Source: Pseudomonadota bacterium (GTDB taxonomy: Bacteria > Pseudomonadota > Gammaproteobacteria > Pseudomonadales > Azotimanducaceae). Taken from it: a DNA stretch of 64,000 nt. Below the pieces are notes generated by a model that made no database searches, was not told the origin of the DNA, and saw nothing but the letters and a program-made list of their open reading frames with translations. Positions within the stretch are counted from its first letter, which is position 1. The number at the start of each line of letters is the position of its first letter. The DNA lies in NCBI GenBank assembly GCA_047947185.1, contig CP170502.1:1301978-1365977 (forward strand), read 5' to 3'. Positions 12,875-32,900 of this stretch are shown one piece after another. The translations under genes and the position numbers were made by a program.

Positions 12875-12885
12875 CTACGCCCTGG

Positions 12886-13257: not shown

Positions 13258-13260
13258 GGA

Positions 13261-15486
13261 CTACCGATACCTCAGTTCATCCTGCAGGTCATGTGCCTGC
13301 CCGATGACATACGCCCTCAGTGCGGCAACATCGTCTTCTGCCAGCACATCACCAAACATCGGCATGCCCCGGTCTTGCAGGATGCCATCCAGCACAATTT
13401 CCCGGAATGCCATGTACTTGGCCGCGGGCATATGGCGCAGATCCGGGATTACCCCGCCGCCTTTCACACCGGCACCATGGCAAACCCCACAGTAGGTTGA
13501 ATACACCACGGCACCCTGGGCTATCTGTTCCGGCGTGCCTTCACGCGGGGGTGGCGGTGGTATGGGCGCATCCGGCGCGAGCGGCGGCAGGGTTGCCGTA
13601 CCCCCGAGCTTATAGGTCAGGATTTTGCCACGGCTTTTCTGGTTCAACATCTCGGCACCCCGGCCAAACGATAGCGCATAGGCACCACCCCAGCCTGCTA
13701 CCCAGGTGACATACTGTTCACCGTCAACCATATAGGTCACGGGTGGGGCAATCACCCCGGTTTGTGCTGGCGAGCGCCACAGCTCAACGCCATTGTCGGC
13801 CCGGTAGGCTTTTACTTCGCCAGCGGACGTCCCCTGGAATATCAGGTTGCCGGCGGTCGTCAGCATCCCGCCATTCCAGGCACCCGGGTGCTGGATTCGC
13901 CAGGCCTCCTCCTGCCTGACTGGATCCCAGGCTGAGACGTAACCGCGCATCATGCCGCCAAAGCGATCCTCAACGGTCTTGTCGACGAGTGGACCAGGGT
14001 CCCAGCTGATGGCCAGGTTCCACCGCCCTTCAACAAACTCGAAAGCCGGTTCGTGACCATAACCGTAGGGAATATCAAGCGCGGGTATGTAGACGAGCCC
14101 GGTTTCCGGATTAAACGCCATGGGATGCCAGTTATGCCCACCCAGGGGTGAAGGTTTGTGGAACGCGGCCTCAAGCTGTTCGTTACTCAATGACTTGAGC
14201 GCCTCTATCTGCTGATCAAGGGGCAGTGAGGACAGCGGATTGGGTGCCTGGTAGCGGGCGTTATCCGTTTCAACCGGCCGGCCGGACTCCGGGTCCACAT
14301 GGGTCGCCCAGGTAATCGGTATGTAGGGTTTGGCGGAAATAAACTCGCCATTGGTACGGTCAAGCACGTAGAAAAAACCGTTCTTGGGCGCCTGCAAAAT
14401 GACCTTGCGCGTCTCGCCGTTGATCTCGAGCTCAGCCAGGATCATGTGCTGGGTGGCGGTGTAGTCCCAGGTATCTCCCGGTGTGGTCTGGTAATGCCAG
14501 ATGTACTCGCCGGTATCAGGGTTGAGCGCAACAATAGATGACAGGTACAGATTGTCGCCGCCACCCGGGCTGCGCACCTGCTGGTTCCAGGGTGAGCCGT
14601 TACCCACGCCAATGTAAAGCTGGTTCAGCTCCGGGTCGTAGGCCATTGAGTCCCAGACAGTGCCACCACCACCCATGGTCCACCACTGCCCCGTCCAGGT
14701 TTTGGCTGCTGCTTCCATGGCGGGTGATACAAACGGCTCCGCCGGATTACCCGGTACCGTATAAAAGCGCCAGACCTGCTCGCCGGTGCTGGCGTCATAG
14801 GCGGTTACGTACCCGCGCACGCCATACTCGGCCCCACCATTGCCAATAATCACCTTGTCATTAACAACGCGTGGCGCGCCGGTAATGGTATAGGGTTTGG
14901 TGCGGTCAATGGTGTTGACATCCCACAGCACCTCACCGTTGGCCGCGTCCAGGGCCACCAGCCGTCCGTCCAGCGTGCCGACAAAAACCTTGCCCTTCCA
15001 GAGGGCCACCCCCCGGTTCACCACGTCACAGCAGGCATTCTTGCCCCATGACTTTGGGACCTGCGGATCATACTTCCAGATCAGTTCACCGGTTTTGGCA
15101 TTGTTGGCAAAAACCAGGCTCCAGGAACCGGTGCTGTACATCACCCCGTCAACCACAATGGGTGAAGCCTCGAGGCCGCGGTTGGTTTCCGTATCAAACC
15201 ACCAGGCCAGGCCAAGCTCACCCACATTGCTATCGTTGATCTGGTCCAGCGGACTGAATCTTGCTTCATCGTAGGTGCGGCCATGGGCCAACCAGTTGCC
15301 TGGTTCACTGTCGGCGTTGGTGATGCGCGCACCATCCACGCCGGCAGTAACTTCACGGATATGGTCCGCCATGGCGTTTGCTGTTTGTGGCAATTCAGCC
15401 GGAACCGGGACGCTATCTTCCTGCGTCAGCAGGAAAGCCAGCAGAATGACAAAAAGACCCGCTGCGAGCGCGATCAGGTTACGCAT
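13261..15486 (-). CDS. PQQ-dependent quinohemoprotein alcohol dehydrogenase (type II ADH)
   Basis: Signal/anchor peptide, a vicinal Cys pair (KNACCDVVNRG), W-rich propeller repeats and a C-terminal cytochrome c domain with CGVCHG. GGAGG RBS. Confidence 0.92.
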   Translation of the reverse strand: MRNLIALAAGLFVILLAFLLTQEDSVPVPAELPQTANAMADHIREVTAGVDGARITNADSEPGNWLAHGRTYDEARFSPLDQINDSNVGELGLAWWFDTETNRGLEASPIVVDGVMYSTGSWSLVFANNAKTGELIWKYDPQVPKSWGKNACCDVVNRGVALWKGKVFVGTLDGRLVALDAANGEVLWDVNTIDRTKPYTITGAPRVVNDKVIIGNGGAEYGVRGYVTAYDASTGEQVWRFYTVPGNPAEPFVSPAMEAAAKTWTGQWWTMGGGGTVWDSMAYDPELNQLYIGVGNGSPWNQQVRSPGGGDNLYLSSIVALNPDTGEYIWHYQTTPGDTWDYTATQHMILAELEINGETRKVILQAPKNGFFYVLDRTNGEFISAKPYIPITWATHVDPESGRPVETDNARYQAPNPLSSLPLDQQIEALKSLSNEQLEAAFHKPSPLGGHNWHPMAFNPETGLVYIPALDIPYGYGHEPAFEFVEGRWNLAISWDPGPLVDKTVEDRFGGMMRGYVSAWDPVRQEEAWRIQHPGAWNGGMLTTAGNLIFQGTSAGEVKAYRADNGVELWRSPAQTGVIAPPVTYMVDGEQYVTWVAGWGGAYALSFGRGAEMLNQKSRGKILTYKLGGTATLPPLAPDAPIPPPPPREGTPEQIAQGAVVYSTYCGVCHGAGVKGGGVIPDLRHMPAAKYMAFREIVLDGILQDRGMPMFGDVLAEDDVAALRAYVIGQAHDLQDELRYR

Positions 15487-15561: not shown

Positions 15562-18500
15562 TTACTGGGTACCTATACGCTGCATGAGGTTGCGGGCGTC
15601 GAACTGGTCAAACTTGACCCGATATTTGAGGTATACGCCTTTGGCTGTGTACTCGCTGGCACTGAAATCTTCATCATGGAATCCGGAGAAGTTATAGCCC
15701 AGCGACATCCAGACATTGTGTGCCATGTTGTAGCCAACCGAGACACCAAACGAGGTGTCCGAGGCGCCAGCCGCGTAAGAGTTATACATGCTTGTCTGTA
15801 CACCCAGGTCCCATTTGTTGTTCATATCGTGACGAATCTCCATCCCCAACAGGTCTGTAAACCCGCGATACTCATCGTCATCAAAGTTATCAACCACGTA
15901 CTTGGCGCCGTACTGGAACGCAATCTGGGTATTTTCCTGCCACAGATAGTTGGCATTCAGGTTGTTCACGATCTTCTGCGACACCACACTCGAATCAAGT
16001 GAACTGGACGTGTTACGCGACAGGTCCAGCCGGTTGAACAGGGTCCAGCGGCTGTCAATCGGCCGGAACGCATAACCCAGCCTTACGTCGGTAGTCGTCT
16101 GCGCAGAAAACTCGGTGTCATTTTTCTGGATGTTGATCTGGGCCAGCAACTGTGCCCCCTCATCCAGATCATGAATAACGTCACTTAGCAGGTTTACCTT
16201 GTCGCCGGTATCAGCCTTGCGATATTCGACCCGGGTGGACCAGTCCCAGGCGTTACGCTTGTAATTGGAGCCGAACGTCACCGCGGTAAAATCGTCATCC
16301 CCGGGGCTTGAGTAGACCGTGGTCACTTCCAGCTCAGGTGCAGCCCGCGTCTGCTTGATGGTCTGGGACCTGTCAACGCCAAAGTCGAAACTCCAGGCAT
16401 CGTTATACTCCCAGCGCTGCTTGAGACCGGCTACCGCCGCCAGCCGCTCGGAATTTTCCTGGTCAGCGCTTTGCTGTACCGAGGTGTTCAGTTCTGCACC
16501 GTCCCACAAGCGCGAACTCATGCCAATGCGGGTCCCCTGGGTATCCAGCTCTTCGCCCCAGGAGAACTCCTGTTCCGCGCTGAGGGTGACCGCGTCATTC
16601 AGCTTGTAATCCAGGCCAACACGCAGGCGCTTGGGGAAGTTGGCTGCTTCACCCTGTCCGCCTATCGGTGCATCGGCACTGGCTGTCAGGTTTGCCCTGC
16701 CATCCAGCACCTTGTAACTGCCACCCACCAGCACCTGGTTGGACACTGACTCCACACCATCTGCATCACTGACCGCGGATCTGAGCCCGGTATTGATGCT
16801 GTACTGGTCGTTGCGCATTTCCATGGTCGTCGACACCACGTCCTCGGTTGAACCTGTCCCAAGATTGGTCTGGCGATAGGCCTCACCACGGACTTCCACA
16901 CCGTCCCTGACCGTATAGGCGCCCTCAACACCCATCTTGCGGGTACCTGATTCACTGGCATTCTGCTGGCCAAGTCCAAACCCGCCGTCCTGCTCACGGA
17001 CGTAGGCCCGCGCATCCAGTTCCGCGTTGCGTCGCGAGATCTCGGCGAGATAAGCCGTACCGCTCGTTTCGCTACCGTCTTCCAGCTTGCTCCCGGTTGT
17101 CGCAATCTCTGCACGAAACTCGGTATCTGCGTCAATCTCAACAGCAACATCAACACCCAGCAGGCCGGTCTCCCGGTTTTCAACCCCTTCACGGATCGCC
17201 GTTGCGCCAACCTCAACCCGCTCGTTGGGCTTGTAGGCAACACGACCGCCCAGGTTCATTCGGTCCCGACCATCTCCTGCCGTTTCATAGTCTGCCACAA
17301 TAAATACCGGGTTAAATGCCGGGTCCTGGCTGTAAACCGGTTGTTTGAAGAAGATGGTGCCCGCGTCGTAATCAATGTTGTAATCAACGTAACGACGCAT
17401 ATCAACCGACTCGAGAATTCGCTCGGACCGGAAACGGTCGCGGGTTTCGAGCCTGATCTTTTCACTGTTGATCAGGATGCCGCCCGCTGACAACCGGTAT
17501 AAACCGGAGGTGCCATCACCCCGGATTTCGTCTTTTACAAACGCCTGGTTCGCCTCGCTCGCAAACGCAGAAAACTCGAACCTGTCACCCTCATATTCGG
17601 TCTTGAGGCCGGTGAAGTTCCTCGAGTAAGACGACAACTCATTGACGGTAAGCCCTGTCGTGAAGTCACCGAACAGGGCCGAAAACTGGTGTTTTTCCAG
17701 CTTCAGAAAGAGTTTTTCGTTGCTGGACGCATCGTACTGCAGGGTCGAGCGGTCGCCGTACAACGTGTAATAGGCGCTGGGGTCGATTGCCTGGGACAGG
17801 GCGTTTTTCTTTTCTTTGGCGGTATCGTAGGCAATCGTCAGGATGTACTCACCCTTGATTTGTCCCTTGGCATAAAACGCAACGCGCCCGTCTGCTGAGA
17901 ACTCATCATCCAGTCCGGCATCTGCAAGTCCTTCCATGTTCCCGGAGAGTTTCTGTTGGGCCAGTGAGCCTTCCGCGAGACCGACCATGATCCAGTCACG
18001 TTTTTCCGGCGCAACAAACAGCTCTATTTCCGTATCCTGCTCGTCACCATAGTAAAGGCTTGCATGATAAACACCGCTGCGGCTGACAGGGTTGAATTGC
18101 AACAGCCCGTCCGCGTCAACATCAATGTAGTTGCGATCCCTGATTTCCGCCAGCTCACTCAGGCTAAGCCCCCGGTCCAGCGCAACCAGGGAATCACTCT
18201 CAAAAACCAGTTTGTAAGGGCGCGATATTTTCTCACCGCTGCGGTCACGCAGATCAAGTTGCACCCTGACGGGTGTCCTGCCATCTGCAATATTGCCTTC
18301 GCTCTCAACCACCTCCAACCTGAACAGTTCACCTACACGCACGTAGGAAATCGTCTCGTCAAACCGTGCATTGCCAAAGCTGTCGACACCCTGAACGGTA
18401 ATCTGGTGTTCGCCCGGCTCACCCAGATCAACACCAATATAGCTGTACAGTGTTTTCCCGGTATCGCCGTCTTCCATGGTGAAACCGATTCGATCTTTCG

Positions 18501-21500
18501 GTACCTCGGTACCATCCACCAGCAGTTTTGGCTTCAGCCTGCTGTCAAGATCCAGTTTGATAGCCATGACCCGGGTGCTCACCCGCTCACCTTCGTTCAG
18601 GGTAATCAGGCCCTGCCGGTCAGGGTCACGACTGGCAACTGGTGTTTCACCACTGGCATCCAGCAGGTCCCAGCTACCGATTGCCTGGCTCCTGACTGAG
18701 GTTGATACCTTGACGTTCTGACCAGCCAGTTGCACAAGCGGCAAGCGATTGGGTGGCGTCTTTCCCTTCGGGGTTCCGACCGAGGTAAAACTCAGTCTTG
18801 CGGTACTGTCACCGGCGAGTACGCTGGCCGTGATAGTTCTGTCTTCCGGCAAATCGGGCGCAGCATTAAACAGCAGTTCAACCCGGCGGTTCTGCTGGCG
18901 CCCTGCCCGGGTCTCATTGGAGGCCACCGGATAGCGGTCGGCTGCACCTACCACGGCAATGGCAGGAAAGTCTCCCCGGCTGGCAAGGTAGTCAGCAACT
19001 GCCTGGGCACGCGCTTGTGATAGCGCCGCGTTGTCCGCAAATTCACCGCGATTCTCCGGCGCAATCCGCACGTTGTCAGTGTGCCCCACCACGGTCACTG
19101 CTTCCCAGCGTCGGTTACCCAGCTTTGCAATCAGTCTGTCGAGATCGGCGCGGTCTGCACTGGTGAGCGCCACGCTACGGGTTTCAAATCTCGGCTGCAG
19201 GGCAAGCAGCAGGTTATCGGGCGGCGGCTTCTTTTGACCCGGTTTGGGTTGAATGGCAAACCGGAGTTCTTTGCTGGTAACCACATCACCAATGTTCCAG
19301 ACGGTGCCAACAATGGACTGGCTATGGCTGATGGGGCTGCCGTCAAGTTCTTCGGTCCCCGCGATAACCGTCCAGCCCGCCGGCAGGCGGTAGATTACGC
19401 TGGCATCTTCTGCCACCACACGCCCTTCAGCAGACGCAGTGACCAGCACCCAGACCCGGTCGCCATCAACCGCCAGCGACTGTATCAACTCGATGTCAGA
19501 GACCGGCGGCGCCTTTTCCCTGACCCTGAAATCGGCACGCCACAGGGTACCACCCTGCAGGTCAACAAACTGCGAATGGGTCGCGCCCGCAAACCGGGCG
19601 TTGCTGTTACAGGGTGAGGGTTCATAACGCTCCTCCAGCGAGTCGATGTCCAGTTGGACAACATGACTGCCGGGTTCGATACCTTCCATGTGCCACATGC
19701 CCTCGTCATCTGTGATGACGTAAGAGCCGTCTTCCAGGAAAATCCGCACCCCGGGCATACCAGTCACCGGCGCCGGGTCACCCTGTCCTGCCTCATCAGC
19801 GCACTGTTCAAGTGTCACCCGGCCCGTGAGCATGGCTTTTCGACTGAACAGGTCATCCGTCACCACCACCCTCGCGGTTGCGGTGTTGCTCGAGACAATC
19901 AGGTCACCCATCACGCTCGCGGTATTGACTGCCGGCCCCAGGCCAGCGCCGGCCGTAATTTCGGCAACGTAGCGTACGTCAACAGGCTCAGTGCCAACCG
20001 GTGGCAGGTTAATGGTCAGCAGTGAACCATTGGCGTCAATCGAGGGATCCGGTGCCCGGGCGCCATCAATCCTGAGCGACCCTGACTGGAACCGAAACCC
20101 TTTGGGCAGCCTGTCGACGATGGCGCTGTCTCCCGCCGTGCCGCCGTTTTCGTTGTTTACGGTAATTCGATACTGGATAAAGTCTCCGATCGCTGCCACA
20201 TCGCGGCTGGCTTCTTTTTGCAGGAAAACGTTTGCGGACGGCTCGTCAATGGGCACATCAATGTTCAGCGCCGGTCCGACCGGTACTTCAAAAACGTCGC
20301 CACGCGAACCATCCACTACCTGGAAAGGTGCACCATTCAAACCCTGGATGACCAGGTCACTGACAACCGACGGGAACACCAGGTTGGCCGGCAGGTTGGT
20401 CACTTCCAGCCGGTAGTTGCCCGGCGCAACAAATGGAAACCGATATTCACCGTCGGGGAAGTCATACTGGAGCCCCGCGTCATCGGTAACGCTGCCGCCG
20501 GTCACCAGGGTGCTGGGAAAGGGGGCAAACAGCGGACCATCACCAAACACTGCCGCGGGCTCATTGGTATCGGCATTAACCAGCGTAATTGTTGCCCCGT
20601 TGATGAGTTCGCCGTTGCGGGTGCTGAACACCCGACCAAAAGGGTCCACCAGGACAAGGCTTTCGGAGCTGTCGGTGTTGTCAAACGCATCCGTGTAGGT
20701 GCTGGTGATCGGCTGGTTTTTCACAACCCCCAGCGTACAGCTGCCGGAAGATGATTCTTCTTCCGCCGATTGAATGTAGCCGATAAATTCACCGCTGTTT
20801 GGCTCAGTCTCGGTGAGTTCCAGGAATTCACGGTCGCCGCTGGCGGCAACATCCAGTTGGACGGTGATTGTCTCCCGGACATTGGCATCACGGTTCTGGT
20901 CCGCGTCTGTCACCTTGACAAAAACCGGCTGGCCTACCTTGATGACATCAGTCCTGATCAGGTTGACCACACCGGGTACTGGCACCAGGACGTTCCTGAG
21001 TTCCACTACCTCACGGGTCTGGCCTGCAACACAAACGGTTTGCTGGACGTTATAGGGTGTGCCCACGGCGGGATTGGGGCTGTACTGAAAAAATTCTGTT
21101 TTTGACGGCGAGGGACTGGCAGGCACTGCTGGCCCAATCCGCGTGACCGGGATATCAATCCTGGGCAGTGCCCCCTGGCTGACGCGAAACGGAAGTCCAC
21201 GTGACGCATCAGACAGTCGATAAGCACCGTCGGAAGTAACCGTGAGGGCACGCTCGAGGCTGGCGCCAAGCGACTGCAGCTCACTGTCTGGGCGCTGCGA
21301 AAACACATATCTCTGCGTGTTAAAGATCTCGAGCCGGTACTCCCCGTCAGGAATGGCTGGAAAACGGTATTCACCGGCATCCACGTCATAGACTGCGCCA
21401 GACCGATCCCGGGTATCTTCACCCGACTTTAGCGCTGACGGATAGAGTGAATAGACCGGACCGTCCCCGCGAACGTCCGCCGGCGTTGACGTGGCAACAC

Positions 21501-22785
21501 GCACCAGGGTGAGGATGACACCATTGACCGGTTCCCCGGTCGTGTCATCGAAGACGATACCTACAGGCGCAATATCGGCCAGCCTGGTGCTGATATCCTG
21601 CCCGTCAGTGGGATCTGTATAAGTTGCATTCACCTGGGACCGCGAGCGTACATTGAGGATACAGTCCTCGGGTACACTCACCTGGTTGGTGGTGATGACA
21701 TACCCCACAAAATAACCGCTATCCGGGCCTGACTCGAACAGACGCACCGTTTCGGTATCATTGGTCAGGCTCACATTCACGACCACATCAACCGATTCGA
21801 CCAGGAGGGGATTGTAGTTCTGGTCCATATCGCTGACACCAATATAGACTGGATCTCCAATGGCATAAGCATCAACAGGATCAACCGACAGATCGCCAAA
21901 TGGATTCGGACTACGAAAATCCAGGGAGCGTGACGCAATGGCAAGATCTCCGCCAAACTGACATACGGCAGGCTCAATCGCGTAAGTGTTGCCCGTTGCA
22001 TCAGGCGCCAACAATTCTATGTTCGATGGGGTCGGTACAACGGTCCGCACAGTTGTAATCACAGCCGACAACTCGGTCTTTAAACCACCCCTGTCGGTCG
22101 CAACAACTGTGACGGGAACCTCGGTATCAGGCGGCAGCAAGACGCCTTCCGCCAGGGACAACACGCCATCAACCACAACAAAGCGATCATCGCCGGCCAC
22201 AGTAAAAACGTGCTCATCACCCGCGTCAGGATCTGAAACGCTGAGTTCGCCAATCACCTGTCCGGGTGAATCGGGCGGTACATATCCACTGCTTAATGTC
22301 AGGTCAAACGGCGTCTCGTTGACGTCGAACACCTTAACATCGAAAGTCTCCTCGTAAACATTACCGCCGTCATCCGTGACACTGATTCTTACCGGGACTT
22401 CAGGCTCGGTCTCATAATCAAGGGAGACCCCGGCAACCAGCCGCAGTTGATCATCAACGACCTCAAAGCGTGCATCGCTGACTGACCAGACATGGCCGGT
22501 AACCTGATCGGGGTCAACCACAAGCACCGGACCGACAACAGCACCCGGCACATTCTCCAGGACGAAGGCCACTTCACAGCCAGCATCGTCGGCACAGTCA
22601 AGGTCAATGTCGGTCGGGGCGTCATCACCGTCGGTGAACTCAAGCGTAAAACTGACCCTGGCCTCGATGCCCTCTGGCGCACCGGCGAACGTAAGGCGGG
22701 CAAGGTTGGTGTAGATATCACCGTTCTGTTGCGCGTCTGCTGGCGTCGCAGAAAAGAAAAGGGCCATGGCAACTACCGTTACCAT
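15562..22785 (-). CDS. Giant (~2400 aa) envelope protein with adhesin-like repeats, an internal OmpA-like domain and a large C-terminal predicted beta-barrel
   Basis: Domain order, N to C:
- Signal-like N-terminus MVTVVAMALFFSATPADA.
- Two cadherin-like repeats (DVNETP).
- A duplicated ~300-aa beta-sandwich module (GEYRFP...YRLE).
- DUF11-type repeat (IGDFIQYRITVNN...NTASV).
- OmpA_C-like domain (VTVVGHTDNVRIA...LSQARAQAVADYL...NRRVELL, about nt 18860-19200).
- Ig-like domain.
- About 800 C-terminal aa of amphipathic beta-strands (about nt 15565-18000).
The start could instead be the ATG at 22893. Confidence 0.85.
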   Translation of the reverse strand: MVTVVAMALFFSATPADAQQNGDIYTNLARLTFAGAPEGIEARVSFTLEFTDGDDAPTDIDLDCADDAGCEVAFVLENVPGAVVGPVLVVDPDQVTGHVWSVSDARFEVVDDQLRLVAGVSLDYETEPEVPVRISVTDDGGNVYEETFDVKVFDVNETPFDLTLSSGYVPPDSPGQVIGELSVSDPDAGDEHVFTVAGDDRFVVVDGVLSLAEGVLLPPDTEVPVTVVATDRGGLKTELSAVITTVRTVVPTPSNIELLAPDATGNTYAIEPAVCQFGGDLAIASRSLDFRSPNPFGDLSVDPVDAYAIGDPVYIGVSDMDQNYNPLLVESVDVVVNVSLTNDTETVRLFESGPDSGYFVGYVITTNQVSVPEDCILNVRSRSQVNATYTDPTDGQDISTRLADIAPVGIVFDDTTGEPVNGVILTLVRVATSTPADVRGDGPVYSLYPSALKSGEDTRDRSGAVYDVDAGEYRFPAIPDGEYRLEIFNTQRYVFSQRPDSELQSLGASLERALTVTSDGAYRLSDASRGLPFRVSQGALPRIDIPVTRIGPAVPASPSPSKTEFFQYSPNPAVGTPYNVQQTVCVAGQTREVVELRNVLVPVPGVVNLIRTDVIKVGQPVFVKVTDADQNRDANVRETITVQLDVAASGDREFLELTETEPNSGEFIGYIQSAEEESSSGSCTLGVVKNQPITSTYTDAFDNTDSSESLVLVDPFGRVFSTRNGELINGATITLVNADTNEPAAVFGDGPLFAPFPSTLVTGGSVTDDAGLQYDFPDGEYRFPFVAPGNYRLEVTNLPANLVFPSVVSDLVIQGLNGAPFQVVDGSRGDVFEVPVGPALNIDVPIDEPSANVFLQKEASRDVAAIGDFIQYRITVNNENGGTAGDSAIVDRLPKGFRFQSGSLRIDGARAPDPSIDANGSLLTINLPPVGTEPVDVRYVAEITAGAGLGPAVNTASVMGDLIVSSNTATARVVVTDDLFSRKAMLTGRVTLEQCADEAGQGDPAPVTGMPGVRIFLEDGSYVITDDEGMWHMEGIEPGSHVVQLDIDSLEERYEPSPCNSNARFAGATHSQFVDLQGGTLWRADFRVREKAPPVSDIELIQSLAVDGDRVWVLVTASAEGRVVAEDASVIYRLPAGWTVIAGTEELDGSPISHSQSIVGTVWNIGDVVTSKELRFAIQPKPGQKKPPPDNLLLALQPRFETRSVALTSADRADLDRLIAKLGNRRWEAVTVVGHTDNVRIAPENRGEFADNAALSQARAQAVADYLASRGDFPAIAVVGAADRYPVASNETRAGRQQNRRVELLFNAAPDLPEDRTITASVLAGDSTARLSFTSVGTPKGKTPPNRLPLVQLAGQNVKVSTSVRSQAIGSWDLLDASGETPVASRDPDRQGLITLNEGERVSTRVMAIKLDLDSRLKPKLLVDGTEVPKDRIGFTMEDGDTGKTLYSYIGVDLGEPGEHQITVQGVDSFGNARFDETISYVRVGELFRLEVVESEGNIADGRTPVRVQLDLRDRSGEKISRPYKLVFESDSLVALDRGLSLSELAEIRDRNYIDVDADGLLQFNPVSRSGVYHASLYYGDEQDTEIELFVAPEKRDWIMVGLAEGSLAQQKLSGNMEGLADAGLDDEFSADGRVAFYAKGQIKGEYILTIAYDTAKEKKNALSQAIDPSAYYTLYGDRSTLQYDASSNEKLFLKLEKHQFSALFGDFTTGLTVNELSSYSRNFTGLKTEYEGDRFEFSAFASEANQAFVKDEIRGDGTSGLYRLSAGGILINSEKIRLETRDRFRSERILESVDMRRYVDYNIDYDAGTIFFKQPVYSQDPAFNPVFIVADYETAGDGRDRMNLGGRVAYKPNERVEVGATAIREGVENRETGLLGVDVAVEIDADTEFRAEIATTGSKLEDGSETSGTAYLAEISRRNAELDARAYVREQDGGFGLGQQNASESGTRKMGVEGAYTVRDGVEVRGEAYRQTNLGTGSTEDVVSTTMEMRNDQYSINTGLRSAVSDADGVESVSNQVLVGGSYKVLDGRANLTASADAPIGGQGEAANFPKRLRVGLDYKLNDAVTLSAEQEFSWGEELDTQGTRIGMSSRLWDGAELNTSVQQSADQENSERLAAVAGLKQRWEYNDAWSFDFGVDRSQTIKQTRAAPELEVTTVYSSPGDDDFTAVTFGSNYKRNAWDWSTRVEYRKADTGDKVNLLSDVIHDLDEGAQLLAQINIQKNDTEFSAQTTTDVRLGYAFRPIDSRWTLFNRLDLSRNTSSSLDSSVVSQKIVNNLNANYLWQENTQIAFQYGAKYVVDNFDDDEYRGFTDLLGMEIRHDMNNKWDLGVQTSMYNSYAAGASDTSFGVSVGYNMAHNVWMSLGYNFSGFHDEDFSASEYTAKGVYLKYRVKFDQFDARNLMQRIGTQ

Positions 22786-22910
22786 GACCCTTACACGTTT
22801 TATGCATCGAACGAGAATATCAGCACATCCTGCCAAAGTGGCATCGGCGCGGCTTACACCGTTTCTCCTGTACTGATTTCCCGTGATCCACATCCAATCA
22901 TCATCAGGCT

Positions 22911-24092
22911 CTAGTCAACCTGTATACGGTAGACGACACGCGCAACGCCGTTGAGGCTGCCAGTGTCTTCCCCACCTGTCAGTGACCCGCTGGTGCCTAC
23001 AAGCAGACCACCATCGTCAGCATCACTTGCCAGCGGGAAATCGTTCGGGTCCGCGGTAACCGTGTCATCACTGACCGCCAGTGTGTTCAGCAGTGTCGTG
23101 CCTGACACATAAGACGTGTACTGCGGCAGTGTGTCGGACAGCACCGCACCCGTTATTGCCGTGCCTGTCGGGTTGTCCATGACAATCAGGTACTCCAGCA
23201 CACCGCCTGGTTCAGCAGTCACCCCACCATCAAAATAGTTGTTGGCGCCGCTGCCCGAATCATAACTGACCGCACCGGTACCACCGCTCTCATCACAGAG
23301 GCTGATACAACGGACCAGCTTGGTCATGATGATCTCGACAATATCGATGTCCACATCGTCGGTAAACGTCGTGGCCCCGTTATTCAGCGACGTGGTCACT
23401 GTAATGTCTGCAGCAGGCGTTGCCGATACTGTCTTCGCACCTACATCCGCCACGCTCATCGTAAAGGTTTCCGATTCGAATATGCCTTCGCCAACCGGGA
23501 GGCCGCCTGGAATATTGGCCGTAAACGTAATTGTCGAAGTACCGGAGGCGTTGTCGACAACACTCAACACCGTGTATTCAATGTTGTTGATCACCACCGT
23601 ATCAGTAGGTGCGAGACCGTTCACCTCGCCGTCACTGGTGCCATCTGAAGGCACAGTCACGGTGGGACTACCACCCGGTGAAATCGCCGCCAGCGCCGTT
23701 GCACCCAGCTCAATACTGCCAACCGAGGGTGTGATGACATAGCCACCGCCCGGTGCCGTGACGTTGTTGGAACCTGTCACTGCACCACTGATCGTGTAGG
23801 TGTCGACACCGTTGTTCTGTGCATACACCTTGTAACTGATCAGGGCTGACGCGTTCTCAGGCTTGGATTGATCCGGTGGCACCGAAAAGGCCGGGTTGAT
23901 CCTGACGTCAGCCTTGACGAGGCTCACCGTGACGGTGACCTCTGCCGTAATGCCGGTTGGATTACCCGAGTACACCAGTTTTGCCTGGTTGATCAGCGCC
24001 GTGTTGGCCGGTGTTAATGCCAGCGCCGCCGGTGCGCCGAACATCAGGCCAAGCGCCACCAGAACCACTGCATGAAGTTTAAAAGATTTCAT
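22911..24092 (-). CDS. Secreted two-domain DUF11-type repeat protein
   Basis: Signal peptide MKSFKLHAVVLVALGLMFGAPAALA and an AGAGGA RBS. The Thr/Val/Gly-rich beta-sandwich sequence ends ...ARVVYRIQVD, like its paralog at 24120. A Cys pair is present (VRCISLC). Confidence 0.8.
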   Translation of the reverse strand: MKSFKLHAVVLVALGLMFGAPAALALTPANTALINQAKLVYSGNPTGITAEVTVTVSLVKADVRINPAFSVPPDQSKPENASALISYKVYAQNNGVDTYTISGAVTGSNNVTAPGGGYVITPSVGSIELGATALAAISPGGSPTVTVPSDGTSDGEVNGLAPTDTVVINNIEYTVLSVVDNASGTSTITFTANIPGGLPVGEGIFESETFTMSVADVGAKTVSATPAADITVTTSLNNGATTFTDDVDIDIVEIIMTKLVRCISLCDESGGTGAVSYDSGSGANNYFDGGVTAEPGGVLEYLIVMDNPTGTAITGAVLSDTLPQYTSYVSGTTLLNTLAVSDDTVTADPNDFPLASDADDGGLLVGTSGSLTGGEDTGSLNGVARVVYRIQVD

Positions 24093-24119
24093 TACTACGT
24101 CCTCTGAGAATTCTTATGG

Positions 24120-24867
24120 CTAGTCAATTTGTACAAGGTAACGAACAACCGACACGTTGCCCGCGTCGATAGTCCCGCCAATAGCACCCACCTCATTGGC
24201 ACCCGCACCGGCGAAGACGGTAATTTCATCCGGATCCGGCGTGGTATTCACACCGCCGAAATCCCCGCCCGTGGCCAGCGTATCGTCGACGTTAGCCGCC
24301 GAAAGACTGCCTGTTACCGTACAGGTGCCCGTCGCTGCCGCACTACAGGCACCCGCGCCGTCCGCTGCTGTCGTATTGGGCAGCACCTGGATGGTGGTTG
24401 CCTGGTAGGTCGTGAAATTGACAAAGGGGTCTGTCACAACCACGTTCTGGACGTCGCCACCGTCGTTGTACAGAAGGATGATGTATTCAAGGTCTTCGCC
24501 CGGCTGAGCACTCACACCATCTGCATAGTAGGTTGTACCGCCAACCACAACACAGGAGAAAGCTGCGGCGCCACATGAAGCAGGGTTGCTCGCAAAGGTG
24601 TCAAGGTTCCTGACAAACTTGTAGATCTGCAGATTGGCGGCCAGCACGGTAATCAGCGGAGTCATAGGCAATGGCGGGGATTGCCGGCAGCAGGTTAACC
24701 GTCACAATGACAGAATCAGTGGCTGTCAGGCCCGTTGCTGTCAGGCTGTCGTAAGTGACAGTTACCGTGTTGCGCAGTTGCGCCTGGGACGCGGTCCCGG
24801 CGGCAAGCGCCTGGCCGGCAAATGCTGCCACCAACAGACCCAGACCAATTCTTACTATACTTCTCAT
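24120..24867 (-). pseudogene. Secreted DUF11-type protein with interrupted reading frame (+1 shift needed between 24701 and 24604)
   Basis: Frame A (ATG 24867, signal peptide MRSIVRIGLGLLVAAFAGQALA) stops at 24601. Frame B (open from 24701 to 24120) encodes a domain paralogous to the C-terminus of the 393-aa neighbour but has no signal peptide. A G4/C4 run lies at 24676-24679. This could be a real frameshift, a sequencing error, recoding, or two separate genes. Confidence 0.5.
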
Positions 24868-24953
24868 GTTGAGCGCCTCTAACCTTAACTTCGTGTGAAA
24901 CCGCCACACCCAAATGTAACGACTGTAAAACTCATTTCAAAAATCGTGCCAGA

Positions 24954-25454
24954 TTACTGAACCAGCACCACAAAACTGACCTCACCGGTTTCGCCGGGCG
25001 GAATTTCCTCAATCAACCAGCGAATATTGGTGAATCTTTCCGGCGATGCCTTACGTCGGTCTGTGCCGCCGCCAAAGACGGTCACCTCGTAGGTCACCTC
25101 CTCTGGCGGGCTGTACGTCTGGCCGCCGTCTGCTGAAAAGACAATGGTAGAGCCCGTTCCCGATGCGGAATCCGACAGGTAAACCGTCAGGTCCGGAATA
25201 GGATTCTCAATCCTCACCTCGGTTGCAGGCTCGTCACCCATGTTGACGTAGCGCACTGTATAGCGGAGCTTCTGACCGGGTTCGATCTCCTCGGCTTCGA
25301 CCCAGCGCGTCACTTCCTGACCATTTTCTTCAACGACCACTTCTTTCAACACGTTCATGTCGAGTTGAATATTGGGATCGGCCATGGCCACAGAGGGCGT
25401 CAGCACGGCCATCAATATCAATTCCATCAACATCAGTCTTTTCCTGTTCTTCAT
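24954..25454 (-). CDS. Small secreted single-domain DUF11-type protein
   Basis: Signal peptide MKNRKRLMLMELILMAVLTPSVAMA from the ATG at 25454. DUF11-like core (GQKLRYTVRYVNMGDEPATEVRIENPIP...GETGEVSFVVLVQ). Confidence 0.8.
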   Translation of the reverse strand: MKNRKRLMLMELILMAVLTPSVAMADPNIQLDMNVLKEVVVEENGQEVTRWVEAEEIEPGQKLRYTVRYVNMGDEPATEVRIENPIPDLTVYLSDSASGTGSTIVFSADGGQTYSPPEEVTYEVTVFGGGTDRRKASPERFTNIRWLIEEIPPGETGEVSFVVLVQ

Positions 25455-25708
25455 CGAGTCCAGGATTCCTTGCGAATATCGAGCCAAGATCTTCATTGTT
25501 CTACCATCGTGTCAGAAACTTGTTGTTGAGCTTTAGACGCACTCTTGCGCATGGTATTCAATCAAACCACACGCCACAAGCGAAAATTTCAATGAAAATA
25601 GCGGGTTAACGCCAATTTCAAAGAAACCGTATGAAGTCTTGCTGCCAGGATTCCTCAACCCTTCCCTATTGGATGAATCACATTATAGGAGGGCCAAACT
25701 GTTTAAAC

Positions 25709-26172: not shown

Positions 26173-26883
26173 ATGCCTGAGTTTATTGCCAACCTGCTGA
26201 TAGTCGAAGATGAACCCATCACGCGGTCACAGTTGGCGGCACACTTTCGGCGCGAAGGCTACGGCATCACCGAACTGGAAACCGCAGACGGCGTTCAGCA
26301 GGCAATCGACAGCAGCAATATTGATATCTGCCTCATCGACATCAACCTGCCTGGTAAAGACGGCCTGACGCTTACCCGGGAGCTGAGAAACGGCTCAGAC
26401 GTGGGCATCATCCTGGTCACTGGCAAAGACGAACAGATTGACCGCATACTGGGCCTCGAGAGCGGCGCTGACGACTACGTCACAAAACCCTTTGATCCCC
26501 GGGAACTGCTCTCTCGCGTCAAGAACCTGCTCTGGCGCATTCGTGCCCAGGAGAAACAGAAGGAGAAAGGCTTCAAGCGAAAGTTTGCTGACTGGACCCT
26601 CGACCTTAACAAACGCGAACTGTTGACACCTGATGGTGAAATCCAGCCCCTTTCTGCCGGCGAGTTCCACCTGCTGCTTGCCCTGATCGAAAACGCTGGC
26701 CAGGTCATGACCCGTGATCAACTGATGAACCGGATCCGCAACCGCGAATGGTATCCCGATGATCGCTATATTGACGTGCTGGTGGGCCAGGTCCGGCGAA
26801 AGTTCCGCGAACACGCACCCGACACGACCTTCATCAGTACAATACACGGTACCGGCTACCTGTTTGCGCCTGATGTGACCTGA
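26173..26883 (+). CDS. OmpR/PhoB-family response regulator, ArcA-like
   Basis: REC domain (LLIVEDE, phospho-acceptor context CLIDINLPGKDG, GADDYVTKPF) plus a winged-helix C-terminus (ISTIHGTGYLF). It aligns well with E. coli ArcA by eye. Confidence 0.9.
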   Translation: MPEFIANLLIVEDEPITRSQLAAHFRREGYGITELETADGVQQAIDSSNIDICLIDINLPGKDGLTLTRELRNGSDVGIILVTGKDEQIDRILGLESGADDYVTKPFDPRELLSRVKNLLWRIRAQEKQKEKGFKRKFADWTLDLNKRELLTPDGEIQPLSAGEFHLLLALIENAGQVMTRDQLMNRIRNREWYPDDRYIDVLVGQVRRKFREHAPDTTFISTIHGTGYLFAPDVT

Positions 26884-26921
26884 GGGTATAAGATTATCGC
26901 GTTACCCACAGGGACGCTGGC

Positions 26922-29900
26922 ATGATTTCGGTCGTCGGCTATACCAATCTGCAACTCATCTACCAGGGACCCGAAACCCTGGTCTACCGCGCCACCAGAC
27001 GGATTGACAAGCGCCCCGTGGTACTGAGGCAGCTGCGCGCCGACAGGTTTTCTCCGTCGCTTGCGGCACAGTACCAGAGGGAGTACGCGCTGCTCCGCAC
27101 CATCGAGTCGGCCAGGGTCATTGCTGCCCTTGATCTTGTTGAGGCCGACGGAACCGTCACCCTGGTGACCGAAGACGTTGGCGGTACTTCGCTGGCAGAG
27201 TTGCCGCATCTGCCGCTCAACGATGTCATTGCCCTTGCTATCGCTATCGTCGACGGCTTGGATGACCTGCACGCCCAATACATCGTGCACAAGGACATTT
27301 GCCCAGGAAACCTGATCCTGAATCCTGCAACCGGCCAGCTCAAGATCATCGACCTTGGCATCGCATCGCAAACCCGCGCATCTTCCCGACGACCGGAGCC
27401 GGGCCTCGGACCGGAAGGTACATTGCCTTACATGGCCCCGGAGCAGACCGGTCGACTGAACCGCTCGGTGGACTATCGCGCGGACTTTTACGCTCTCGGT
27501 GCCACCCTCTACGAGCTGTTAACCGGAAACCCGCCCTTTCGGGCCGACAGCGTGCTCGAAATGATCTACAGCCATGTCGCCCTCATGCCAACGGCACCGG
27601 CGGAGGTCAGCCCTGCCGTGCCAGCCAGTCTCTCAAACATCGTGATGAAACTGCTGGCGAAAATGCCCGAGGAGAGATACCAGAGCACTTTTGCGCTCAG
27701 GGCTGACCTCAACCGCTGCCTTGAACTGGTGTCCGGTGGTACCGACGCGGGCTTCCAGATTGCACTGGATGACATACCCGAACAGATGCTGCTCACCCAG
27801 AAATTGCTGGAACGTGAGGCGCAACTCCAGCAAATCAAGGATGGTCTTGCCGCGGCAGCCGCAGGTACCACGGAGATTGTCGTCTGCCATGGCAAGGCCG
27901 GTACGGGTAAGTCTGCCCTGATCCGTGAATTCCAGAAGGAGGTACTGACAGGTGGCGGCCTGTTTGTTAGCGCCCGTCACAACCCGGCCAGCCCCGAACG
28001 CCCCTATGGTGCCGTGTCGGTGGCATGCCGCGACCTGGTCAGGCAACTGCAGGCGCGGGTTGACAATGAATCCATCCGCGTTCGCCTGGCCCAGGCGCTC
28101 GGTGAGAATGTTGGTGTGATCACACAGCTGGTACCGGAACTGGCGCCGCTTTTCCCGGACCGGGGCCAGGATCTGAATCTGCCACCGATTGAGGCGAGGA
28201 GTCGCCTGTTGTGGAGTCTCACAACCCTGATTCAAACCCTGTCCAGCGAGGAACATCCCTTTGTGCTGGTGATCGAGAGCCTGCACTGGATCGACAAGGC
28301 GTCACTTGAGTTGTTCGAACCCCTGATTATTGCGCAGCGGATTCCGGGACTTATGGTGTTGTGTGCCTACCGGCCAGAGGAACTCAACCTGAACAGTGAT
28401 ACCCGGCAGGTCATTGAGCGCATCATGACCTCCGGTGCACCCATCAGGCTGGTCCGCCTGACCAATCTGTCCGCGCAGGCAATTGCCGTTCTGCTTTCGG
28501 AGTCCTTCTTCCGACCTGTTGAGGATACGCTAACGCTGGCACGTCTGATTCATGACAAGACAGGTGGTAACCCCCTGGCCGTCCACGCGTTCATCTCAAA
28601 CCTTGGCGAAGTGGGCGCCCTGCGTTTTGACAGACGCCATCGCGAGTGGACCTGGGACCTCACCACAGCTTCTGCCACGCCGCCTACCGAAAATGTTGGC
28701 GAACAGCTCTCTGCAAGCATAGGCAAACTGGAGCCAGCCACGGCCCAACTGCTGAAAATTGCGTCATGTGCCGGTGAAGACTTTGATCTCGAAATGCTGC
28801 GAGAAGTATCCGGCCTTTCGTTTCCCGAGACCGCGGCGCGCCTGCTGAACGCCGTCAGGGAAGGCTTTATCATCTACCGACCTGTTGACGCCACCCACCC
28901 CGGCCGTCAGGCGGGCCCGCTCAGCTACCGGTTTGCCCATGAACGCATCCAGCAGGCTGCCTACGCCCTGCTGGATAACGAGGAGAAGCGGCAGATCCAC
29001 GGCAAGATCGGCGAGGTATTGCTGCGCGCCGCTGAGGCAGATGAAACCAGCAGGATTTTCGATGTTGTCAATCATCTCAACAATGGCATCACCCGACCGG
29101 ATCGGAAGGCTTCCGAAGATACCCGACTTGCCTCACTCAACATCGCTGCCGGCAACAAGGCAAAAGCCGCGGGTGCCTTCCAGGCTGCCTTCAAATACTA
29201 TCGCACGGCGATAGCCCTGCAAGGACCCCGTCTCTGGGACAGGTACGATGAGTCCCTGGAACTGCATCTGGACACGGCAGAAGCAGCCTATCTGTGCGGA
29301 GACCAGAACCAGGTGGAACTCACGATCAACAGTGTGCTCACCCATGCACGCAGTCCGCTGGATCGTGCCCGGGCACTTGAAATCCGTCTCCGCGCGCTGA
29401 TTGCATTTGAGGACATCGAGTCGGCCCTCAGCCTGGGTGACGAGGTACTGGAGCTCCTGAACGTCCGTGTTCCACGGATGGGCGGCCCCGGTTTCATCAG
29501 GATGCTCGGGAGCCTGATCTACCAGGTTATCCGCGTGAGCCAGAGCAGTACCTTGCCAACACGCAAGATGACCGACCCAGGGCTCCTGGCCGCCATGCGG
29601 ATTCTCATGGTCATGTGCCAGGCAAGCTACCTGAACGGTAGCCCGCAGACTGGCATGTACATACTCAGGATGACCCAGCTATCCGTGCGGCACGGCCTGG
29701 CACCGGAGTCGTCTTTTGCCTACCCGATGTTCGGTGCCCTGATCATCACCTATCTCGGCACAATCAGCGCGGGCTACCGCTTTGGCATGCTGGCGATGCA
29801 AAACCTGGATGAACACAACAAGGAGCTTCACTGCAAGAGCCTGACGCTGGTGAACAATTTCATTTCAATCTGGAAACAACCGGTTCGAAACACCTTGGAA

Positions 29901-32900
29901 CCCCTATCCCGCGCTTACCAGACGGGCATGGAAACGGGTGACGTGGAGTTTGCGCTGATCGCCGCAATTATGGGAACCGTCAACGCTTTTCTGCTGGGGC
30001 ACGACCTGAACAGCCTGGACGCCAGCCTGGCTCGCTACAACCGTCAGGCCGCAGATTTGAACCAGACGCCAATACTGGGTATCGGATCCATTTACCAGCA
30101 GGCCATACGCAATCTGTCCCAGCCTGCCGGGCAACCCTGGCTACTTGTTGGTGATATCTATGTTGAAGAGGATCTGATTCCCTTTCACGAGGCAAATGGC
30201 GATGAATCAAGCCTCGCCAACCTCTACATTGTAAAACTCTTCCTCGCCGTGCTTTTTCGTCGGGACAGGGAAGCGATGGACTATGCCAGGCTGGCACGGC
30301 CAAAACTCTCCAGTGTTGTTTCGTCTCCCGCGCTGGCCTTCTTTATGCTCTACGAGAGCCTTGCGATGCTGAGCTCGCTCAAATCGGTTACGCCAATCAC
30401 CGCGTTGAGGCTGAACCTGCGCATCAGCTACAACCAGCGCCTCTTCCGCAAATGGGCACATCATGCACCTGCCAACATTCTCCACGGCTACCATCTCGTG
30501 GAAGCTGAGCGCCATCGTATTGCCGGCAGAAACACCGCGGCGCTTGAAGCGTTTGACCTTGCCATCAGCGCTGCGAGCGAAAACGGCTATCTGAAAGAGC
30601 AGGCGCTTGCCAATGAACTCGCCGGTCGTTTCCATCTGGGTTCAGGCAAAAGAGAACTTGCACTCTTCTACCTGAGAAGGGCGCGCGCTGCCTACACGCG
30701 CTGGGGTGCCATCAGCAAGGTCCGGGCGCTGGATACGGAATTTGTCGAGCTTTCGGAAGACGACCTCTACACGGGGCGCGGACGACTTTTGTCAGCCGCG
30801 GGTACGTCGATCAAGATTCAGGGCCAAAGGGACATGCGCGGTTATGGTGAGTTTCTTGACCTGGGCTCAGTCATCAAGGCGTCCCAGGTGCTGGCCGGGG
30901 AAATTGTGCTCGACAATCTGCTGGAGCGCCTGATGCAGGTTGCGCTGGAGAATGCCGGGGCCCAGAAAGCCGCCCTTGTGCTGTCGCGCGACAACCGGCT
31001 CAACCTTGAAATGACAACGGATTACCAGGATCAGAAGCCGATCCATGTGAGGCAGGAGATTCCAATCGAACAGGCCAGCGACATACCTGTGTCGGTTGTG
31101 CAGTATGTTGCCAGAACGCGGGAGGATCTGGTGTTGAATGACGCCATGAACGAGGACATCTTCACCCAGGATGCCTACATCGTGTCAAGAAAACCCAAGT
31201 CCATACTCTGCATACCCATTCTGAGCAAGTCACACCTCACGGGCGTGCTCTACCTGGAGAACATGCAGACCACGCTCGCCTTTACCAAAGACCGGGTGGC
31301 GATTCTCAGGTTACTGGCATCCCAGTCTGCAATTGCCATCGAAAATGCCCGCCTGTACCAGCAACTGAATGATTCGCGTAACAAGTATCTCTCGCTTTAC
31401 CAGAACGCCGTCGAGGGCATTTTCGAGCTTGATGGGCGTGGCATGGTCACAAACATCAATCCGGCAGCAGCACACCTGATGGGTTACGACTCAGCAGAAC
31501 AGGCGCTGCGCCATGGCAGTTTCGACCCGACAAAGCGCGTGGTTAACCCCGAAGATGCCGAGCATGTGCGCGCTTTGCTCAATCAGGAGCAGCGGGTGAT
31601 CGGTTATGAACTCCTCATCCGCCGCAATGACGAATCCACAATCTGGGTTGCCCTTTCTGCCCAGGTTTTTACCGGTGACAACGACGACGATTTCAGGGTT
31701 GAGGGTTCCATCATTGACATCACCGAACGGAAGTTGAGAGAAGAAGCCGAGCAGGCAACCCGCCTCGCCCGTGCTGCCACTGAAACCAAAAGTCAGTTCC
31801 TGGCAAACATGAGCCACGAAATCAGGACCCCCATGAACGCGATTGTGGGGTATACCAATCTTGCGCTCAAAACACCGCTGTCGGAACAACAGGCCAGCTA
31901 CCTTGAGACAATTCGCAACTCGTCAAACCACCTGCTGCGGGTTGTCAATGACATACTTGATCTCTCCAGGGTGGAGTCAGGAAAACTCGAACTCCAGCAT
32001 ACGCCATTCCGGCTTCGCGATATTGTCACTGATCTGCATAACCTGTTTGATCTCGAAGCACAACAAAAAGGCATTCGGCTGCTTGTACCTGATATCGCGG
32101 ATGCAGAGGAAGATTTTTTTGTTGGCGATCCGGTCCGCATCGGCCAGATTCTCATCAATCTGGTTGGCAACGCGCTCAAGTTTACTGACACCGGCGAGGT
32201 GCGTGTTGAATTTGAAACCGTGCACCTGAAAGACGAGCGGGCCTGCCTGAATTTTACTGTTGCCGACACGGGTATTGGTATCGACGCTTCACAGCTCAAC
32301 ACAATTTTCGACTCGTTTGTCCAGGGTAATGCGCCCTCGCGGGAAGAAGGCACGGGCCTTGGACTGGCTATCTGCAAGAGCCTGGTCGAAATGATGGAAG
32401 GACACATACACGCTGTCAGCACACCCGGTGAGGGCAGCCAGTTCTATTTTTCCGTGATTGTGGGTGTGGACAGGGATCAACGGGTGAAGTCGGCGGCGCC
32501 AGCCGCTACGGCAGGGTCGTTGGAGGGTCAAACGCTGCTGCTGGTTGAGGACAACGCTATCAATCGCAACCTCGCCCTGGAGGTCCTGAGCCAGGCTGGG
32601 CTCTCGGTTGTTGTCGCGGAAAACGGTGCCGAGGCACTTGCCGCGCTGGAAACCCAGGCTTTTTTTGCCGTCCTGATGGATCTGCGCATGCCTGTTATGA
32701 ACGGTATAGAGGCAATCAGGCAAATACGCGCGATTCCGGCGTTCGCAACCCTGCCAACAATTGCCCTCTCCGCAAGTGTACTGAAATCTGAGGTGGATGA
32801 AGCCATTAGCGCCGGGTTCGATCACTATCTCAGCAAACCCGTTGATTTTGCCGAGTTGCTGGACCTCCTCCGGGCGATAGGCAATGTTGCGCCAGCGCCC

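Follow-up and report, generated by a model that had tools for sequence, protein, structure and literature searches.

Organization of the locus

The window analysed here is a stretch of 64,000 nucleotides (nt) from a gammaproteobacterium of the family Azotimanducaceae (assembly GCA_047947185.1, contig CP170502.1, positions 1,301,978 to 1,365,977), and our subject is a cluster of four genes lying head to tail on its minus strand (15562-25496). Their products appear to share out the parts of a single adhesin domain, in such a way that the start of one protein may complete the end of another. The first gene, P0005 (24954..25496), encodes a small secreted protein of 180 amino acids (aa). It is followed by a middle gene broken into an N-terminal part, P0004 (24601..24909), and a C-terminal part, P0003 (24120..24671), by P0002 (22911..24092; 393 aa, with a signal peptide, a hairpin motif, a middle domain and a C-terminal domain) and by the giant P0001 (15562..22893; 2443 aa).

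The giant has a signal peptide and the hairpin and, in the Pfam scans, cadherin-like domains, two repeats with CarboxypepD_reg-like domains, a DUF11 domain, an OmpA-like domain (residues 1236-1336) and a C-terminal region. DUF11 (PF01345) has been renamed CLIPPER, and its crystal structure, PDB 9IFR, is a CnaA-like sandwich from an Acinetobacter silvestris adhesin with an OmpA-like anchor (10.1101/2025.04.25.650565; PMC12617251). In 9IFR an isopeptide bond joins Lys-715, near the domain start, to Asn-806, about 20 residues before its end, with Asp-748 as the presumed catalyst (10.1101/2025.04.25.650565). The DUF11 domain of the giant (residues 891-1008, 19858..20241) is complete, covering positions 4-113 of the 114 in the profile with 38.2 bits (cut-off 24.6). 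Aligned to 9IFR, it carries all three triad residues in one chain, in FLQKEA, VDRLP and VNTASV, and it served as our internal reference for the uncut domain. The C-terminal third of the giant (15565-18876, ∼1100 aa) gave a weak match to OMP_b-brl (E 4.7e-5, in four stretches) and a weak one to OmpA_membrane; a PDB sequence search with the last 1104 aa returned no match. From these profiles, the last ∼1100 aa, C-terminal to the OmpA-like domain, probably form a very large outer-membrane barrel.

A conserved hairpin motif at the mature N-termini

The original prediction was that three proteins of this cluster begin, directly after their signal peptides, with related segments, and all three segments were found there on the minus strand. 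The motif peptide comprises residues 60-86 of the giant (IYTNLARLTFAGAPEGIEARVSFTLEF, 22636-22716), 32-58 of P0002 (ALINQAKLVYSGNPTGITAEVTVTVSL, 23919-23999) and 44-73 of P0004 (QLRNTVTVTYDSLTATGLTATDSVIVTVNL, 24691-24780). As features, the hairpin motifs occupy residues 55-86 of the giant, at its predicted mature N-terminus (22636..22731), residues 26-58 of P0002 (23919..24017) and positions 24691-24801 of the middle gene, whose signal peptide lies at 24802-24867. A signal-peptide-like segment ending in AxA precedes each motif (ADA before QQ, ALA before LT, ALA before AG), and the Asn at the bond position, N35 in P0002 (23988-23990; the candidate isopeptide Asn), is 8-10 residues from the predicted mature N-terminus in the three proteins.

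The motif is conserved in orthologues and across phyla, a point on which the prediction had made itself depend. In an alignment of 13 orthologues of P0002 (A1) the pattern TPANT.L.N.A.L.Y.GN.TGI..V.V.V is among the best conserved stretches of the protein. We also collected 135 diverse full-length members of the P0002 family, from the 150 best matches in a protein library clustered at 50% identity plus the 13 homologues of P0002; the residue at N35 is Asn in 124 of them, and the one at Y41 is aromatic in 133. The corresponding N63 of the giant is invariant in five orthologues (A3), and the motif of the middle protein is conserved in four intact orthologues of 441-468 aa (A4).

A profile hidden Markov model (HMM) of the motif, with 34 columns built from the P0002/middle-protein family, was run on all 903 six-frame open reading frames (ORFs) of the window. 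P0002 scored 49 bits, by construction, and the middle gene 31.6 bits (E 4e-9); the N-terminus of the giant ranked third, at the correct position, with 5.9 bits (E 0.67). The motif of the window's giant is therefore weak and not significant by itself, and chance is not rejected for this protein taken alone. Chance is rejected for the middle protein, for P0002 and for the orthologues of the giant, in which the motif is significant (E 1e-4 to 3e-7, and E 8e-6 in a genome-wide search with the whole-protein profile A1, matching A1 positions 8-63). The likeness to the closing strands of a DUF11 repeat, also part of the prediction, holds up: judged by its sequence, the motif corresponds to strands 8-9, the hairpin that closes a CLIPPER/DUF11 isopeptide domain, and bears the predicted bond-forming Asn.

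C-terminal domains cut before the hairpin

P0005, the middle gene and P0002 each end in a CLIPPER-type domain that is cut just before the Asn-bearing hairpin, with the Lys and the Asp/Glu kept. In P0002 this domain spans residues 246-393 (22914..23357) and runs through the landmarks IIMTKLVRC, LSDTLP and VVYRIQVD to the stop codon. Its Lys, K258 (23319-23321), is present in 135/135 family members and is the sole residue invariant in all of them; D320 (23133-23135) is Asp in 132 and Glu in two. Every one of the 135 proteins ends 0-2 residues beyond strand 7. In the cluster proteins, too, nothing follows the last strand (RIQVD, LVQID, VLVQ), and an LPXTG-type sorting signal is absent.

Recognition of the cut domains by family models is partial. 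The P0002 domain exceeds the cut-off of TIGR01451 (24.6 bits versus 24) and falls below that of Pfam DUF11 (15.6 bits). P0005, which has no N-terminal hairpin, matches Pfam DUF11 at 30.8 bits over profile positions 4-58 only. When compared by hhalign with the C-terminal domain family, it aligns with 96% probability and the same C-terminal end, E97 being paired with D320 and K51 with K258, the latter in low-confidence alignment columns. P0003 keeps its Lys in LQIYKFVRN and its Asp in VVTDPF; its cut domain was recognized from the translation, from alignments A4 and A8 and by the C-domain HMM (E 3e-23), while Pfam gives just a weak DUF7927 match. The only C-domain HMM match in the giant is its complete internal DUF11, so it has no cut domain.

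With triad positions set by the 9IFR alignment of the giant's intact domain and by alignment A12, all residues of the CLIPPER/DUF11 triad (the strand 1 Lys, the Asp/Glu and the strand 8 Asn) can be placed, divided between the pieces. The nine CLIPPER strands do not lie in one contiguous segment, the missing hairpin being found at the N-termini. The cut domain is thus a split variant of CLIPPER/DUF11 and not an ordinary member.

The P0002 family is large. An exhaustive profile search of the 50%-identity library gave 2181 matches, with 266 family clusters at E <1e-30. An initial impression of rarity, from a word-indexed search that returned just 13 relatives, was rejected as an artefact. The window's genome holds no further members of the P0002 or P0005 families, and P0005 is present in a single copy. 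Among the components of the cluster, P0005 is by far the most conserved (68-79% identity to its orthologues, A5, versus 32-58% for the others), which hints at a constrained role, which might be to cap, to nucleate or to partner something else.

Natural fusions and conserved gene order

In several relatives the pieces are joined. P0062, P0093 and P0167-P0177 (2050-2790 aa; one from a Syntrophaceae metagenome-assembled genome, MAG) are P0002-type proteins fused to the body of the giant. There, the cut domain (...VLYQVTVN) is followed directly by NAAQADKIVNSAKLSSPDITS.ATSAVTVTGV and then by the giant's body. The MAFFT fusion alignments A6, A7, A9 and A10 placed the last strand of the C-domain on the last strand of the hairpin; in A12, which uses naturally complete domains as bridges, the hairpin of the fused giants matches the N-terminal motif of P0002 column for column, with the two Asn in register. 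In the fusions the Asn lies 9 residues beyond the end of strand 7, compared with 8-10 from the predicted mature N-terminus in the three window proteins, and the cut is therefore seamless.

P0167 (2790 aa) and P0169 (2764 aa) contain the same domain type (KYVRN...YQVTV) as tandem complete repeats, the uncut form. Between each copy and the FTKYVRN of the next domain stands a hairpin, IVNSAQLSSPD...SSVTVT. Since both tandem and fused forms carry the hairpin, this domain type normally has one; the small proteins are without it, and the split giant bears it at its N-terminus. Six of the fused giants (P0062, P0093, P0170, P0174, P0175 and P0177) retain an N-terminal hairpin as well, although their own domain is already complete, and this hairpin must therefore serve another chain.

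The order small protein, middle protein, P0002-type protein and giant is kept wherever the contig is long enough. It was observed in 6/6 genomes of the window's genus, in 1/31 other genera sampled in the same family and in 16 loci found with P0005, mostly from Pseudomonadales MAGs, as well as in an Alcanivoracaceae MAG. Loci of the Syntrophaceae type have the same order, and a Vulcanimicrobiota contig (L029) has a small-protein homologue and not the full order. Related loci come from Pseudomonadota, a Syntrophaceae MAG and a Vulcanimicrobiota MAG.

Two loci (L031, 3799-5820; L032, 698-2785) encode an extra protein of 673-695 aa, in which a glycine-rich, beta-helix-like N-terminal body ends in a cut CLIPPER-type domain. 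No hairpin motif was detected in these two proteins, and from their architecture they look like tip adhesins for a fibre.

Probable pairing of the hairpin with the cut domain

These results bear on the central proposal of the original prediction, that the terminal hairpin acts as a donor strand. The idea gains support from co-encoded proteins that end in a CLIPPER/DUF11 domain minus strands 8-9, and from fusions that place the hairpin right after the cut domain. The donor would indeed sit at the N-terminus, as proposed, but as a two-strand hairpin and not as a single strand. Docking onto the giant was predicted too; the evidence points to the reverse of small proteins inserting into a groove of the giant, with the giant donating its own hairpin to the P0002-type protein. 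Overall, the distribution of the two elements makes it fairly probable that pairing occurs between chains, the N-terminal hairpin of one protein completing the cut domain of another.

Chimeric sequences were scored with the Pfam DUF11 model. In this series P0005 alone gave 32.1 bits (positions 4-58). The match rose and lengthened when P0005 was joined to the middle protein's hairpin (39.8 bits, positions 4-99), to the giant's hairpin (37.8 bits, positions 4-96) or to a canonical hairpin (41.3 bits, positions 4-113), versus 33.4-36.6 bits without extension for six shuffled or reversed hairpin controls.

Covariation was analysed in the 135 family members. Mutual information with average product correction (APC) mostly picked out subfamily positions, A133 and P28 among them, and we relied instead on mean-field direct coupling analysis (DCA). 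Among 640 registers, strand 295-303 of the C-domain was the best partner of hairpin strand 9, with a z of 4.5 that may be inflated by middle-type and P0002-type paralogues sharing the alignment, and with a score equal to that within the hairpin itself. Two further pairs, T31-R261 and L39-I254, are consistent with antiparallel strands in the register in which N35 faces K258.

DCA is blind to whether such pairing is within or between chains and, being measured inside one protein family, the coupling fits equally well with a circular permutation, in which the N-terminal hairpin completes the C-terminal domain of its own chain, perhaps with a within-chain bond, to give a closed-loop monomer and no polymer. 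A conserved linker of ∼20 residues behind the hairpin could span the domain, and monomeric self-complemented states are known in donor-strand systems such as TafA (PMC11821415). Nevertheless, the giant has a hairpin without a cut domain and P0005 a cut domain without a hairpin, both of which argue against closure within the chain, as do the six fused giants that keep an N-terminal hairpin while their own domain is already completed by the one that follows it. Structure prediction points the same way. When AlphaFold2 was given P0002 alone (13 sequences; mean predicted local distance difference test, pLDDT, 74), the hairpin was formed at a pLDDT of 43-63, compared with 70-94 in the neighbouring domains, despite the protein's own cut domain being available. 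We consider closure within the chain quite unlikely.

The same model bears on a simpler view, that the motif is an ordinary N-terminal strand pair, part of the protein's own first domain and shared through duplication and common descent, with no role in joining. The hairpin was not confidently built into P0002 as its own first strand pair; folding back in that way was the outcome that the prediction had named as its refutation. The middle protein and P0002 are clear full-length paralogues, the motif of the window's giant is weak, and Foldseek matches are only of the generic immunoglobulin (Ig)-like kind, all of which would suit such descent. Yet the giant has cadherin-like domains behind the motif and not the paralogous middle domain, the hairpin is aligned to the very strands by which the fused and tandem forms complete their C-terminal domain, and the family-wide cut at strand 7 would be left unexplained. 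We regard this view as very improbable.

P0003 and P0002 share a reading frame, and a read-through of the two (the cut domain of P0003, 10 intergenic residues, the P0002 signal peptide and the hairpin) restores the normal strand order. With alignment A12, which held naturally complete domains and so favours a complete fold, AlphaFold2 predicted this construct with a predicted template modelling score (pTM) of 0.71 and placed the hairpin strands (224-234 and 237-249) at a pLDDT of 76-87, like the domain core. The model speaks for compatibility and is not proof that the hairpin docks. Foldseek with the read-through model returned generic adhesin and pilin sandwiches (TTHA1873, ACE19, Cnm N2, RrgB and a group B Streptococcus, GBS, pilin).

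Several results weigh against pairing between chains as we propose it. P0002's own hairpin, placed on P0005 or on the P0002 C-domain, did not raise the Pfam DUF11 score above the controls, and permuted chimeras of the P0002 C-domain and a hairpin scored no better; the long loop 335-380 of P0002 probably blocks the profile alignment. 9IFR was not among the Foldseek top 50 for either P0002 or the read-through model. To these are added the non-significant motif score of the window's giant, the uncertain assignment of K51 as the bonding Lys of P0005, the blindness of DCA to chain identity, the bias of the read-through alignment towards a complete fold and, as described below, the loss of the middle subunit from this genome.

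Proposed joints, covalent or non-covalent

The hairpin bears the Asn of the isopeptide triad, so the joint may be covalent; and because strands 1-7 and strands 8-9 are on separately encoded proteins, any bond would link two chains.

Alternatively, hairpins could complement cut domains between chains by docking only, the Lys, Asp and Asn being ancestral leftovers. A covalent lock is not universal in the family, and at some joints Asn or Lys is lost with the architecture unchanged: N35 is absent in 11/135 members, P0175 keeps the Lys and has Gly at the Asn position, the N-terminal hairpin of P0177 is without N35 while its presumed partner, a neighbouring 387-aa protein, keeps the Lys, and the small proteins of L028 and L029 have Arg and Leu in the Lys column. 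The triad is also absent from many DUF11 domains (10.1101/2025.04.25.650565), and an N35A oligomer of the Clostridium perfringens protein BsaA is still SDS-stable without the bond (10.1101/2024.11.04.621531). Still, conservation of Lys258 in 135/135, of an acidic residue at position 320 in 134/135 (Glu included) and of Asn35 in 124/135 members is hard to explain without chemistry, and docking alone seems to us unlikely.

In P0177 (L030, 8001-14153; the Syntrophaceae MAG), both the Lys of the internal domain (FTQYVRN) and the Asn of the hairpin following it (IVSSARF) are lost. Such a paired loss would fit Lys and Asn as bond partners; P0175 is a case to the contrary.

The broken middle gene

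Relative to its closest relative, L014, the middle gene has suffered a deletion of 599 nt between two copies of the 11-nt repeat ACTCCGCTGAT, as revealed by blastn; the single remaining copy marks the junction (24652..24662). The deletion removes a middle domain of ∼200 aa and, as 599 is not a multiple of three, shifts the frame. The repeat at the junction argues that the deletion is real. The upstream part, P0004, identified from its translation and the motif HMM, retains the signal peptide and the hairpin, and P0003 is left without a start or a signal peptide of its own, so only a peptide of signal sequence and hairpin can be made from the broken gene. The middle subunit is thus destroyed in this genome, where the chain would have to form without it. 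A +1 read-through via a CGGN codon was considered and rejected, there being no in-frame CGG at the junction. L014 is itself a MAG, in which both the orthologue of P0002 and the beginning of the giant fall into two frames (11982-14064), through either assembly error or decay.

Proposed assembly

Taken together, our results suggest that the cluster encodes one fibrillar adhesin in pieces, cut inside a domain rather than between domains, and that three neighbouring secreted proteins probably join head to tail into a surface fibre anchored by the giant outer-membrane protein. The domain is of the CLIPPER/DUF11 type, a CnaA-like sandwich whose intact form is locked by a Lys-Asn isopeptide bond, with Asp/Glu as the presumed catalyst. 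P0005, the middle protein and P0002 each finish in strands 1-7, which carry the Lys and the Asp/Glu, and the predicted mature forms of the middle protein, P0002 and the giant open with strands 8-9, which bear the Asn. Once exported by Sec, a chain would offer its hairpin to the protein encoded immediately upstream, whose incomplete C-terminal domain would take it up, in what may be called donor-hairpin complementation, and a spontaneous interchain isopeptide bond could follow at joints with all three triad residues.

From this scheme we infer the chain order, which would equal the gene order. P0005, an acceptor only, is the candidate distal end; the middle protein would come next, then P0002, donor and acceptor, perhaps in several copies as it may self-polymerise. 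The giant, a donor only and the candidate anchor, would be last and would fix the chain to the cell by way of the OmpA-like domain and the putative barrel at its C-terminus.

No chaperone or usher family was found in Pfam scans of the cluster proteins and flanking ORFs, nor in the precomputed Pfam annotation of L001 and L030-L032, and the scans of the cluster revealed no sortase. We put forward, tentatively and with some doubt, a more far-reaching version: that a diderm fibre builds itself without chaperone, usher, sortase or ATP, from genes cut inside a CLIPPER domain whose pieces reassemble by hairpin insertion once out of the cytoplasm, following the order of the genes, and are welded by spontaneous interchain Lys-Asn bonds, with the giant's barrel as both anchor and exit pore. 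It counts against the proposed assembly as a whole that we know of no export route for folded subunits across the outer membrane.

The Gram-negative pili known to us rely on non-covalent strand exchange driven by chaperones and ushers, and the covalent pili known to us require sortases and are Gram-positive. If correct, the assembly proposed here would be a novel way for diderm bacteria to make surface fibres strengthened by covalent bonds. A CnaA-like domain that is split in nature and ligates itself would account for widespread 'hypothetical' DUF11 operons and might be a source of new orthogonal protein-ligation tags, and the assembly of giant OmpA-anchored adhesins would become testable with a few recombinant fragments.

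Upstream of the cluster, and transcribed divergently from it, lie genes for a response regulator and for a 2123-aa protein with Ser/Thr-kinase, AAA, GAF-PAS and hybrid histidine kinase domains (26173-33293). A response regulator and a hybrid kinase also adjoin the cluster in a Pseudomonadales MAG locus (L001).

Relation to known systems

Full-text literature searches for DUF11 with donor strand retrieved nothing like this system and no published description of such an assembly for CLIPPER/DUF11. The published CLIPPER domain is the nearest in structure. It belongs to the same domain superfamily, the giant's complete copy aligning to 9IFR with Lys, Asp and Asn, and its host is likewise long and Gram-negative, an adhesin in which cadherin-like repeats are combined with an OmpA-like anchor. 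It has, however, been described solely with a within-chain bond, all nine strands being in one chain (10.1101/2025.04.25.650565), whereas here strands 1-7 and 8-9 are at opposite ends of separate proteins, and the cut C-terminal domains match the Pfam model in part or below threshold.

The original prediction drew a parallel with chaperone-usher and type V pili, which stands as an analogy and not as homology. In both cases (here by proposal) a subunit with an unfinished Ig-like fold borrows the missing part from the terminal extension of an adjacent one, with an acceptor-only distal subunit and a donor-only or terminating basal one; the 673-aa protein of L031, with its foreign N-terminal body and cut domain, recalls a tip adhesin. 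On the other hand, no PapD-like chaperone or usher is encoded in or beside the cluster, and Foldseek gave no sequence or fold match to Fim or Pap pilins above generic Ig matches. Chaperone-usher pilins lack their last strand and donate a single-strand extension, while here a CnaA-like domain lacks a two-strand hairpin, and an isopeptide triad and a 2443-aa base protein with its own putative barrel are present besides.

SpyTag/SpyCatcher is an engineered split of CnaB2, in which one of the three reactive residues sits on a short tag and the remaining two on a larger fragment; tag and fragment spontaneously reassemble and become bonded. That system is man-made, of the CnaB type and uses Lys and Asp, in contrast to a natural split of a CnaA-like domain with Lys and Asn.

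In mechanism, the proposal comes closest to BsaA, a TasA-family protein in which donor-strand exchange is followed by an interchain isopeptide lock (10.1101/2024.11.04.621531). Shared with it would be a donor N-terminal segment with Asn, an acceptor Lys with an acidic residue and a spontaneous, sortase-free interchain bond, the bond being a prediction in our case. The likeness is one of mechanism only: the BsaA fold is TasA-like and not CnaA-like, no Pfam match connects the two, and Pfam scans of the cluster gave no TasA, Peptidase_M73 or SipW match. The BsaA donor is a disordered single strand as opposed to a two-strand hairpin, and its setting is Gram-positive and SipW-dependent, as opposed to a diderm with a giant outer-membrane anchor. 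The threads of Sulfolobus acidocaldarius are described as beta-sandwich subunits joined head to tail by donor-strand complementation and reinforced by intersubunit isopeptide bonds (PMC9715654). Head-to-tail donor-strand joining reinforced by isopeptide bonds is what our proposal has in common with them; the threads are archaeal, heavily glycosylated, built from a single subunit and of another fold, and we found no sequence relation. BsaA and the archaeal threads, both of other folds, are thus the closest precedents for the assembly proposed here.

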